Shown one piece after another: positions 13,657 through 16,983 of a stretch of 37,191 nucleotides of DNA; position 1 is the stretch's first letter, and each line of letters opens with the position of its first letter. This stretch comes from a virus (lineage: Duplodnaviria; Caudoviricetes), in IMG/VR virus record IMGVR_UViG_3300017565_000015, positions 1 through 37,191 of that record. The stretch is one strand, 5' to 3'. The notes under the pieces were generated by a model. It had not been told where the DNA came from, did not search any database, and saw nothing but the letters and a program-made list of their open reading frames with translations. Position numbers and translations under genes: made by a program.

Positions 13657-14812
13657 CGCTCTGCTCCTTCTGCGCGCCCGGTTGCGCGGACAGGGCGGCG
13701 CGGGCAGTCTTTGAGTGCTGGTCAGCGGTTCCCCACTTGGCCCGGGTCGCGTTGAAGCAGTCGGGAGCACGTCGATTCGGGTGGTTTGGGTCTTTCGAGC
13801 CGCAGCACAGCCAGTACTTTTGCTGACTGCCCGGCCGCTGCGCGTCCAACGCTTTGCGAAGATCGGCGCACAGGCTATCCGCGCGACCGCCGCCAGTTTC
13901 AATCCAGCTAATCGCCTCCCGCACCAGGGCATGGAGACGTTCGGCCGGCGCATCGCGCACTGCCTCGCTGGCCTGGGACTGTAGTAGCGCCGCCGCCGCT
14001 TTCAATTCGTCGCGGCACTTATGCCACATGGCTTCGGCGCTATTGGCGCGGCATAGCGCAGCCCCAAGGGCGGCTTCTAAGTCCTGCGCCTCGCTGGCCT
14101 GCGAAGCATCTTCCGACCGCTTCCAATCGTCCGCCGTTGCGGCTCGAATAAACGCACCCGTCTTGACTGGTGCCTCAAGCCACTGATACCAGTCGGCGAA
14201 GCCTTCGGGAGCGGGGCCGTGCAATACGCACTGCTTGATGACCAGCTGCTCCTCGCTGGCCTGGGGCGCGGCAGGCGGCTCTGTACCTGCGCGGGCCTGC
14301 GTTTCACGGCAATGGGTCATGTTGGATGCAAGGTTTTCCAGGGCTTCCTCCGCCGTCGAAATACCGTCCCTGATGTTGCGGATCCACTGCACGCCGTTGC
14401 AGGCCATATCCGCCCATTCATTGGCGGCGTGGCGTTGTAATTCCCAGCGCGCCAGCAGTCCACGGATATGCGCCTCCCCGGCTACAGGGGCGCTTGCCAG
14501 GGCGGCGCGGGCTTGCCATGTATCCCAAGCCTCCTTTGTCGCGGTCCACATGTACTGTCCATGCGTCGCGTGGCGTTCCAAATACAGCTCGTCGAGACCA
14601 GTCCTCCGCTGGAACCGCTCAAACGCCGCCCGCTCATCGGCTACAGGGGCGCCCAGCTTGGACAGCAGGGCGGATTCGATGGCGCGGGCGATGCACTGCC
14701 CGAGGTTGAAGTCGTGATCCCCGGGTCGGACGGCGAGCCGGCGAAGCACATTTGTGATTTCGTCATCCGTCAGCTCGGCTTCCTGCGCCGGGGCGGGGGT
14801 GTGGGTGGTCAT
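13649..14812 (-). CDS. Mosaic early protein with repeated linkers (Ea22/EaA-like architecture)
   Basis: 387-aa ORF; APVA(D/G)E x2 and QASE x3 linkers. Confidence 0.65.
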   Translation of the reverse strand: MTTHTPAPAQEAELTDDEITNVLRRLAVRPGDHDFNLGQCIARAIESALLSKLGAPVADERAAFERFQRRTGLDELYLERHATHGQYMWTATKEAWDTWQARAALASAPVAGEAHIRGLLARWELQRHAANEWADMACNGVQWIRNIRDGISTAEEALENLASNMTHCRETQARAGTEPPAAPQASEEQLVIKQCVLHGPAPEGFADWYQWLEAPVKTGAFIRAATADDWKRSEDASQASEAQDLEAALGAALCRANSAEAMWHKCRDELKAAAALLQSQASEAVRDAPAERLHALVREAISWIETGGGRADSLCADLRKALDAQRPGSQQKYWLCCGSKDPNHPNRRAPDCFNATRAKWGTADQHSKTARAALSAQPGAQKEQSDA

Positions 14813-16188
14813 GCTGCCTCCTTAGATTCGGCTGCTGAGAAGATGGAATGCTGCTGCTGCCACTCGCGGAACTTGGCCGTTTCCAAGGCCGTTAAGTCTG
14901 TCCACCCGGTGGGCCACCCCATTAGCCACTCGACCCACGTCGGGTTCAGGGGGCCATTCATTTCCGATGGCGAGACCATGGTGGCCATCTTCTTCCGAGC
15001 GCCAGCGCCGCCCCATTTGCATAGGGCCGCGCCGCCGCTTGATTTCATCGTGGTCGGTGTCGGGTAAAGGTTGGCGGCCAGGCTGAGCGGGGTTCCGCCC
15101 TGTGCATACGGTTTTGATCGCTGCCCCGTATCGCTTGCGGTCGGAGTCGGCCACATCCGCACCGCGGCTTCCAGGCCCACCTGCACCTTCCGGCCGTTGT
15201 GATACGCCGTCTTGCCGCGCCAATCCGTGACATGCGCAACGCTGCGGCCGCCGTTCGGGACGTTCGGCGTAGGCCACAATCCAGATTCGTTCGCGGAGGT
15301 GCTGAGCTCCGGTGTCGGCTGCGGACACGACTCCCCATTCCGCATCGAACCCCAGCGCGGCCAGGTCCCCGAGAACGGTTCCGAGTCCCCGAGAAGTGAG
15401 AATTGGGCTGTTTTCCACGTAGACGAAGCGCGGTCGAACCTCAGCCACGATCCGGGCCATTTGGCTCCAGAGGCCGGATCTTGCGCCAGCCAGTCCTGCG
15501 CCGCGTCCTGCCGCGCTGATGTCCTGGCACGGGAATCCGCCAGATACCACGTCAACAATGCCGCGCCACGGTCTTCCGTCAAAACTGCACACGTCAGACC
15601 AAATCGGGAAAGGTCGGAGGGTTCGATCGTTTTGTCTTGCCGCGAGAACTTGTGCGGCGTAGGCATCACGTTCAACTGCGCAGACGGTTCTCCATCCGAG
15701 CAGGTGGCCGCCGAGAATTCCTCCACCAGCTCCCGCAAAGAGCGCAAGTTCACGCATACCGACCCCTTGAATTCCTCGCCCGATTGGCTTCCATGGCATG
15801 CCGCCTTGAGTGCTCCGCATGACTCATCACCTCCAGGTTCTCCAGACGGTTGTCCGTCTTCACTCCGTTGATGTGGTGGACGCACTCGGTTGGCAACAGG
15901 CGTCGGCCAAGGTGAAGCTCCATCACCATGTCGTGGACATGCATCTCCTTTCGCCCGTCGGCATAGGGGTGTTTGGCCGCATACATCCTCAGGTGACCGT
16001 CCCGAGTCAAGCGCTGTTTGTAGGGCTTCGATTGCAACCCTGTGCGTTGACCCCGGCGCCCCTTCCCGTTGTTCTTCTGCCGACAACTCAGGGAGCAGAA
16101 AGCCTGCCCTTTCCGCTTCGGCTTGAATTCGCAGGTACAAACTGGACAGATGCTCATCTATCAGCCTTTTTGAAAAGAGCCAGCTCAT
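14809..16188 (-). CDS. C5 methyltransferase beta subunit in an alternative frame (TRD-like repeats plus motif IX); start uncertain (16188 ATG or 15753 GTG)
   Basis: Carries LNPTWVEWLMGWPTGWT (motif IX), which is missing from alpha; its stop is ATGA-coupled to the next gene. Confidence 0.7.
   Translation of the reverse strand: MSWLFSKRLIDEHLSSLYLRIQAEAERAGFLLPELSAEEQREGAPGSTHRVAIEALQTALDSGRSPEDVCGQTPLCRRAKGDACPRHGDGASPWPTPVANRVRPPHQRSEDGQPSGEPGGDESCGALKAACHGSQSGEEFKGSVCVNLRSLRELVEEFSAATCSDGEPSAQLNVMPTPHKFSRQDKTIEPSDLSRFGLTCAVLTEDRGAALLTWYLADSRARTSARQDAAQDWLAQDPASGAKWPGSWLRFDRASSTWKTAQFSLLGDSEPFSGTWPRWGSMRNGESCPQPTPELSTSANESGLWPTPNVPNGGRSVAHVTDWRGKTAYHNGRKVQVGLEAAVRMWPTPTASDTGQRSKPYAQGGTPLSLAANLYPTPTTMKSSGGAALCKWGGAGARKKMATMVSPSEMNGPLNPTWVEWLMGWPTGWTDLTALETAKFREWQQQHSIFSAAESKEAA
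14822..15757 (-). CDS. DNA cytosine-C5 methyltransferase, alpha subunit
   Basis: Motif I LFAGAGG, IV GGFPCQDIS, VI VENS, VIII HLRERIW, X LGNGQVP; no motif IX. Confidence 0.9.
   Translation of the reverse strand: MRELALFAGAGGGILGGHLLGWRTVCAVERDAYAAQVLAARQNDRTLRPFPIWSDVCSFDGRPWRGIVDVVSGGFPCQDISAAGRGAGLAGARSGLWSQMARIVAEVRPRFVYVENSPILTSRGLGTVLGDLAALGFDAEWGVVSAADTGAQHLRERIWIVAYAERPERRPQRCACHGLARQDGVSQRPEGAGGPGSRGADVADSDRKRYGAAIKTVCTGRNPAQPGRQPLPDTDHDEIKRRRGPMQMGRRWRSEEDGHHGLAIGNEWPPEPDVGRVANGVAHRVDRLNGLGNGQVPRVAAAAFHLLSSRI
15750..16157 (-). CDS. Free-standing HNH endonuclease with N-terminal Zn finger
   Basis: CPVC...FCSLSC; VHHINGVKTDNRLENL (HNH_3 type). Confidence 0.88.
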   Translation of the reverse strand: MSICPVCTCEFKPKRKGQAFCSLSCRQKNNGKGRRGQRTGLQSKPYKQRLTRDGHLRMYAAKHPYADGRKEMHVHDMVMELHLGRRLLPTECVHHINGVKTDNRLENLEVMSHAEHSRRHAMEANRARNSRGRYA

Positions 16189-16192
16189 TCAT
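16154..16192 (-). pseudogene. Remnant original methyltransferase 5' end (MNELALFKKADR*)
   Basis: Matches MRELALF at 15757; same frame, 435 nt upstream; coupled to the upstream stop and the HNH ATG. Confidence 0.75.
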
Positions 16193-16983
16193 CACCCCTC
16201 CTGCTGCTGAGAGGCTGCACGGATCACGGTCTGAGCGTGCTCACGCATGGTGGCTCGGCCCTGCTCGGGCATGTGCGCCCACGGGTAATCCATGCATTCG
16301 GCCATCGCTTTCGCAGCGGCCTCGATGTTGAGGGGCGGCAGCCGCGCATCGCCAGCAGCGGGAGCGGCAACCTTGGATGCGATGGCTTCTTCCAGCGATA
16401 CCAGATCGCGGCGGAAGTGGATTTCGTCGTGGCCGTAGCCGAAGCGCGCGCACAAGCTGCGGTGGAAATTCCGGTATTCGGCCCAGAGCTGCATGTGCCG
16501 GTACTTCTCGCCAGACAGGGCGGCCGCAAGAAACTTGGCGGCGTCCACCGCAGCACCCGAACCCTGGCAGTGGTCGCAGCAAACATCCACGTCGTGCGCG
16601 TCCGGGCTGTTGTCGCTCATCACGGTGATTTCGCCACTGCCGTCGCAGCGCGGGCATGCACCTGCCTGCCGCTCGTCCTTCGCATCGTCCTGTGCGCTGG
16701 CGGGAGGGGTGGGATCATCGACGCGGCCACCTGTCGGATCGTACGGGTCGACCGGGTAAACGCCTTCCTCGGGGTACTCATCCAGACGAACGGTCAGGAT
16801 GGGTTTCGCGTTCCACACGCCGTCGTCATCCTGCACGGTCCCTGCCGGAGCGACAGCCAGCACCAATTCGATATCGTGGCTTTCCTCATCGTCCCCGCCC
16901 ATGCTCTCGGCGGCGCGGATCAACTCGGCTGCCAGCAACTTCATCTGCGCGACGGTGGAAAGCCATTTGTATTGTTGTGTCAT
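16192..16983 (-). CDS. Mosaic hypothetical protein with a DnaJ-type CxxCxGxG pair
   Basis: CPRCDGSG...CDHCQGSG. Confidence 0.65.
   Translation of the reverse strand: MTQQYKWLSTVAQMKLLAAELIRAAESMGGDDEESHDIELVLAVAPAGTVQDDDGVWNAKPILTVRLDEYPEEGVYPVDPYDPTGGRVDDPTPPASAQDDAKDERQAGACPRCDGSGEITVMSDNSPDAHDVDVCCDHCQGSGAAVDAAKFLAAALSGEKYRHMQLWAEYRNFHRSLCARFGYGHDEIHFRRDLVSLEEAIASKVAAPAAGDARLPPLNIEAAAKAMAECMDYPWAHMPEQGRATMREHAQTVIRAASQQQEG

Follow-up and report, generated by a model that had tools for sequence, protein, structure and literature searches.

An HNH endonuclease gene in a phage genome lies between two versions of the beginning of a DNA methyltransferase gene. How did the nuclease gene come to be there, and what does each version of the start serve? 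The window, i.e., the whole stretch of DNA analysed here, is a complete virus record of 37,191 nt with direct terminal repeats. It contains integrase, repressor, RecT, terminase, head and tail genes, and the phage is therefore probably temperate. The methyltransferase/HNH locus is part of the leftward early region, on the minus strand. A contig from run X1 shows 0 differences from window 14700–16331, and X1 may be the source sample; runs X4 and X5 contain close variants carrying the HNH gene.

Two frames and two starts at the methyltransferase locus

The layout of the locus is as follows, where α and β are the two methyltransferase frames and L478 is a near-identical allele that is empty, i.e., HNH-less.

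16197..16202, minus strand: AGGAGG, a putative Shine-Dalgarno-like site 8 nt 5′ of the β ATG (16188) and 4 nt 5′ of the α-frame ATG (16192)
16154..16192, minus strand: upstream start copy, its first 21 nt equal to those of L478; the α frame, MNELALFKKADR and a stop, is a dead end
16150..16188, minus strand: β N-terminal peptide MSWLFSKRLIDEH, codons 7–13 being supplied by the element and the HNH ATG lying within β codons 11–12
14809..16188, minus strand: β ORF, 459 aa, with no stop through the entire HNH gene, which is in another frame; PHROG 1008, DNA methyltransferase (E 3e-26)
15750..16157, minus strand: HNH endonuclease ORF, 135 aa, with N-terminal Cys pairs; PF13392 HNH_3 (E 2.4e-11)
15731..16171, minus strand: the element as judged against L478; 441 nt stand in place of 6 nt, a net gain of 435, divisible by 3; 3′ edge approximate
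15731..15757, minus strand: element-borne, recoded α codons 1–9 with their own ATG; 9 of 27 nt differ from L478, vs. about 98% identity downstream, and the β Trp is gone
14822..15757, minus strand: α ORF, catalytic chain of a C5 cytosine methyltransferase, 311 aa; PF00145 (E 1e-27, residues 2–166) and PHROG 363
14911..14949, minus strand: LNPTWVEWLMGWP in the β frame, motif-IX-like and nearly invariant in 45 β sequences

As the original prediction had it, there are two ATGs in one frame 435 nt apart; on the minus strand, the ATG at 16192 opens MNELALFKKADR and a stop, and the one downstream, at 15757, opens MRELALFAGAGGG. The two start copies are identical at 14 of 21 nt, with a third-base difference in every one of the five ELALF codons. 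The claimed couplings, TGATG from the upstream gene to the start copy and ATGA from the start copy to the HNH start, can both be read. The HNH stop does overlap the new α start, by 8 nt (ATGCGTGA), but the overlap of the ATG itself that had been claimed is absent. A search near the locus for sigma-70 promoter-like sites found none, and three terminator-like hits are all on the opposite strand.

The prediction is not supported in calling the upstream copy a remnant. That copy contains the β ATG, the start of a 459-aa second-frame ORF (16188–14809) that begins 4 nt inside the supposed remnant, remains open across the HNH gene, and had been overlooked. Nor is there support for MRELALF as the beginning of an intact enzyme: the enzyme is probably two-chain, with the upstream copy serving as the start of the second chain.

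By its motifs, the target gene is of the M.EcoHK31I type, with two overlapping frames: α, beginning MNELALF, has the catalytic motifs, and β, beginning MSWLFS, has the motif-IX-like block. That is, motifs I–VIII and X fall in one frame and motif IX in the other. The motif names, including "motif IX" for LNPTWVEWLMGWP, are those that we take to be standard in the C5 methyltransferase literature. HNH-less relatives have the same two frames, and 59 of the 73 class A alleles listed have complete α and β ORFs including the motif-IX-like block; the remaining 14 are cut off or outside the pattern used. The β chain has no match among PDB sequences or in Pfam.

In the accessible text on M.EcoHK31I, α likewise has motifs I–VIII and X, motif IX belongs to β, which is read from the same DNA in a different frame, and the first 42 residues of β are dispensable in vitro (PMC2836561). 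What is common to the two systems, on that account, is the division of motifs between α and β over two frames of one DNA. The phage gene differs in that β starts 4 nt after α and is co-extensive with it, that β has a PTP-repeat variable region, and that it is an orphan gene known from its sequence. A similar overlap is left unresolved in the part of the Cluster O mycobacteriophage report at hand (PMC4351075). Comparison of window 15270–15500 with L001 and run X4 shows the catalytic core and variable region swapped between alleles having identical 5′ and 3′ ends; the swap is possibly an exchange of specificity.

Empty alleles and the distribution of the element

The HNH protein has a homing-family endonuclease domain: it matches PF13392, and in 34 sequences H75, E80 and R85 are invariant and H94, H95, N97, N107, H116 and H120 are at least 90% conserved. 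In a fold search the top match, a weak one (E 0.016), was I-HmuI.

Empty alleles are available for comparison. Over gene nt 61–201, L478, L493 and L494 match the window at 138–139 of 141 nt, and over codons 10–72 they are 97–99% identical to it (L494, 99%). As predicted for an HNH-less relative, the start of L478 is contiguous, and the motif-I DNA of the target is indeed what the insert splits; because L478 has the same upstream ~30 nt in addition to the contiguous start, the duplicated start is not a chance resemblance. In all close relatives the insertion site is the same one. The replacement start is foreign and recoded, as proposed: in L478, codons 1–9 differ from the window at 9 of 27 nt, amid near-identity downstream. 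The recoding does include the five ELALF codons but is not confined to them, extending to codon 9. That is, the displaced segment is replaced by a foreign homologous copy, in which codons 2–9 are respelled; this respelling is common to the HNH alleles and is absent from the 73 class A alleles listed. HNH-less relatives with the recoded start had been named as an observation that would count against the proposal. Proteins beginning MRELALF or LRELALF do exist in classes B and C, but the DNA spelling of the element (CTT GCG at codons 4–5, TTT at codon 7) is nearly absent: among the alleles listed, none of the 73 in class A or the 23 in class C has it, and 1 of the 47 in class B does. These class counts, made among the matches listed and with B and C mostly drawn from a targeted pattern, are not population frequencies.

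The claim that the insert has neither intron nor intein held as well. A group I or II intron was rejected, Rfam revealing no ribozyme structure and the insert having no non-coding room; so was an intein, the α frame having stops and β being without a Pfam match and unconserved across the insert.

The distinct HNH-bearing alleles among the matches listed are that of the window (also L107 and L108), L001–L006, L109, L110 and L187–L189. A protein database has about 60 close HNH homologues, which come without DNA context. The cassette had no match in E. coli genomes, and GenBank phages and plasmids and GTDB genomes yielded distant HNHs only, with no cultured reference phage found. In isolate run X5 (window 15661–16219), one assembly contains both an HNH-bearing allele and one that is apparently empty.

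How the element is distributed among methyltransferase alleles was judged from codons 10–72. Over this segment L002 is 100% identical to the empty allele L077, whereas the window and L002 are only 89% identical. On a 159-row tree of the segment the 11 rows with the HNH label require 10 changes, of which starred branches force at least 6, and monophyly of the HNH alleles was rejected by an AU test (p-AU 1e-50) on a subset of 50 rows, namely 11 HNH alleles, 24 hand-chosen near neighbours and 15 random rows. The distribution is thus patchy, a pattern that homing would produce but that is confounded by general recombination. The class B label is also scattered on this tree (29 changes for 50 rows), and therefore recombination near codon 10 occurs without the HNH gene. 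The window and L001 differ in the methyltransferase core too, and module swapping is therefore general. L002 and L003 are 95–100% identical in the cassette only and 45–77% identical shortly outside it, on both sides.

Islands of 30–50 nt, at window 16190–16220, 16664–16713, 16342–16370, 14469–14510, 14632–14672 and 13667–13705, are near-identical across otherwise unrelated phage loci. The upstream 20-mer, in the island before 16192, is common to 18 loci and is followed by many different genes, 2 loci running into this methyltransferase start. The islands look like recombination linkers.

In two alleles, L367 and L407, a relic of the element lies in the 141 nt upstream of RELALF. The HNH gene has been reduced to 141 nt by an in-frame deletion, leaving a 38-aa remnant from which the catalytic core is gone; both start copies are kept and β is open. 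We regard this arrangement as a candidate decay intermediate.

The frame open across the HNH gene

Across the HNH gene the β frame has 0 stops in 10 of 10 intact genes listed, a count that omits L001, the HNH of which is that of the window, and L110, which is frameshifted. The third frame has 6–11 stops and the α frame likewise has 6–11. Synonymous shuffling of the HNH genes put the probability of 0 stops at 0.0002 in the window; in 9 of 10 genes it was no more than 0.0084, and in L006 it was 0.068. The avoidance extends to codon choice: T-ending codons before AA, AG or GA number 0 of 272, vs. 234 of 736 elsewhere, counts that are pooled over related genes (61–98% protein identity) and so not independent. 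In 215 distant HNHs taken as controls, the same frame is open in 15, of which 13 are, by eye, nested in amino-methyltransferase ORFs.

The net length of the insert is 435, 438 or 441 nt in all 11 alleles measured, and in 9 of 11 HNH alleles β extends as far as the motif-IX-like block, the exceptions being L110, with a stop at codon 106, and L006, with a stop ahead of the motif-IX-like string. In L110 (478–888), the HNH gene also has two compensating frameshifts flanking the catalytic motif; these defects reflect either decay or assembly error. Identity across the HNH gene is 42% in the β frame vs. 41% in the third frame. Conservation of the β frame is thus no higher than background, and the read-through segment is therefore not a new domain; it is unconserved, in keeping with a tolerated linker.

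The two start copies have kept different things. In the upstream copy β M1, W3, F5 and S6 are kept in 11 of 11 HNH alleles listed and α stops; in the downstream copy α ELALF is kept and β Trp3 is lost. The duplicated start has likely been divided, with the upstream copy used for β and the recoded downstream copy for α.

Independent support for this division is given by HNH-less class B (n=50 listed; L029, L076, L095, L102 and L347–L465), in which the start is duplicated and staggered, by 13 codons in 41 of 50, so that the α and β starts are separated. The first copy keeps the β peptide and the second keeps α, and in many members a new α start codon overlaps the β Ser-Trp codons. Ser6 is present in all 41 class B alleles with the 13-codon stagger and is encoded by AGY in 32 of 41, vs. 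TCG in 73 of 73 class A alleles (alleles listed). Because Ser6 is kept in these staggered genes, and mostly by AGY codons, we infer that selection acts on the β N-terminal peptide itself; the argument relies on Ser6 rather than Trp3, the presence of which in class B is partly explained by the overlapping α start codon. Residue 8 separates class B from the element: Ala8 is kept in 37 of 41 class B alleles vs. Arg in 10 of 11 HNH alleles, and for this reason class B is not a simple deletion of the present element. It may be a scar of greater age; alternatively, the duplication may have arisen independently and have been entered later by the HNH gene.

Structure prediction supports binding of the β peptide to α. 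In a three-chain model of L494, β 1–35 docks on α 35–58 through residues 1–10, 12–13 and 16–17. The docking score was 0.77, vs. 0.02 for the best of 3 controls; the mark applied, which 116 of 157 solved pairs and 2 of 215 mismatched ones attain, is only roughly applicable to a β/α pair; runs agreed in at least 79% of contacts, with partner pLDDT at least 64. The docked peptide is the Ala8 version of the empty allele, unlike the Arg8 peptide of the window; Ala8, found in 59 of 73 class A alleles, is a predicted contact. Resemblance to one-chain methyltransferases of solved structure may account for the docking pass. The locus offers a natural genetic test of whether the second frame in a very large family of phage methyltransferases, a frame that usually goes unannotated, is a real subunit with a functional N-terminal peptide.

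Competing readings and known relatives

The anatomy, the cognate empty allele, the net lengths in multiples of 3 and the avoidance of β stops are read directly from the DNA. What probably accounts for them is a splicing-free homing cassette of 441 nt, lodged after codon 7, that brings a recoded start for α and a read-through for β. In such a scheme the HNH protein would nick or cut empty alleles near the motif-I codons, which would vary little because they code in two frames. The cassette would be copied during repair, crossing-over taking place within the 21-nt upstream copy and shortly past codon 9, and the carrier would be immune because its site is both split and respelled. β would be made with an unconserved insert of ~132 residues behind the docking peptide and would pair with α; the nuclease would decay later by in-frame deletion.

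The same anatomy might belong to a passive or domesticated passenger of ordinary short-homology recombination, the HNH protein not targeting the site. The scatter of class B, the short islands joining many unrelated genes and the two allele types in run X5 all agree with such a passenger, but we consider it unlikely. The upstream copy and the junction are at one site in 13 of 13 close full-length HNH loci with readable flanks, and 12 of the 13 match the methyltransferase by tblastn (the L109 contig ends at the HNH stop). Recoding is sharply confined to codons 2–9, and conversion is two-sided and tight around the cassette. Moreover, the HNH label is unclustered on the tree (10 changes vs. 10.8 when shuffled), whereas the class B label is clustered (29 vs. 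42.7).

A homing element could also supply α with its replacement start while the upstream copy is a dead stub, β restarting at the GTG in ATGCGTGAA or later. Class C empty alleles (23 listed) carry that GTG in the β frame, in-frame GTG and ATG codons (β 146 and 175) could serve for a restart, the β-frame identity across the HNH gene is at background, and β is broken in L110. We give this version little credence, as it offers no reason for stop avoidance over ~135 codons, for lengths that are all multiples of 3, for a relic deleted in frame, or for a Trp3 that is lost downstream and kept upstream in 11 of 11 alleles. Highly improbable is a route in which the insert is spliced out of the RNA as an intron, or is skipped by the ribosome through bypass or frameshift, with MNELALF thereby joined to the body of the enzyme. 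T4 gene 60/MobA illustrates, in the text available to us, that bypass signals can be part of an HNH cassette, and the window has an A5G run after TTC. But Rfam gave no credible match (one hit, 16.5 bits vs. a 50-bit cut-off), the insert is nearly all HNH coding, and there would be no need for a replacement start that has its own ATG. Most relatives lack the A-run, and frameshifting there was rejected for this want of conservation.

To return to the homing cassette, its nearest counterparts each display a part of the arrangement. MobA, a T4-type HNH element in topoisomerase genes 39/60, is described in the excerpted preprint (bioRxiv 10.1101/2022.08.31.505936) as an intron-less phage HNH cassette that removes a small part of a conserved gene and provides in its place a homologous but diverged segment with a new start; out-of-frame overlaps with the HNH gene and a patchy distribution are further likenesses. 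MobA, by that account, interrupts a single ORF in the middle of the gene, so that two proteins result, and brings a bypass cassette with it, whereas the methyltransferase target is the shared start of two frames, one of which reads through the whole HNH gene. WHO at yeast FBA1 (PMC7282813) and the fungal mitochondrial mORF hybrids (PMC3630166) are also homing elements that bring a foreign replacement gene end, and WHO cleavage is allele-specific (PMC7282813); as far as the accessible portions of these papers go, they differ in being eukaryotic, at the 3′ end and of other nuclease families. The displaced WHO fragment, on the same account, need not stay open. In the phage the displaced 5′ copy is not freed from coding, as it begins the β ORF, and it appears to be still used for a second protein.

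Each trick is thus known separately, the replacement segment from MobA, WHO and the mORFs and the out-of-frame read-through from the ShiLan inserts described below. In open-access full text no paper was found on both at one dual-coded start, and the sections of PMC10448857 at hand have nothing on this layout. The arrangement suggests that a splicing-free mobile nuclease can persist in two-frame DNA by giving one protein a replacement start and being read through by the other. Tentatively, we go further: a homing nuclease may exploit a dual-coded, invariant start and unpack the overlap, so that each frame has its own start copy, one subunit is translated through the nuclease gene, and decay leaves a permanently staggered gene with two starts. 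If so, the common HNH-less class B genes, with their 39-nt duplication, would be immune scars, and overlapping genes would have, in invasion by selfish elements, a general way of becoming separated. The candidate series, from empty to invaded allele, deleted relic and staggered duplicate, makes overlap resolution directly testable.

The ShiLan domain and Pacc40 hidden HNH inserts of mycobacteriophage methylases are, in the available part of PMC11855218, out of frame, with the host frame stop-free and neither intron nor intein, and are retained as a predicted loop. The window's HNH matches methylase-annotated mycobacteriophage regions, e.g., in Bipolar, at ~35%, and among its frames β alone has this ShiLan-type relation to the HNH gene. 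The inserts differ, within that text, in having a single host frame, an internal site and no reported duplicated or recoded start. Distant HNH ORFs also lie out of frame inside long amino-methyltransferase-like ORFs at L017–L021, L023, L112, L119, L122, L138, L142, L262 and L325. DPPY or DPFxGSG-type motifs can be read by eye in these host ORFs, from both AT-rich and GC-rich hosts, and ShiLan-like inserts look widespread beyond the actinophages.
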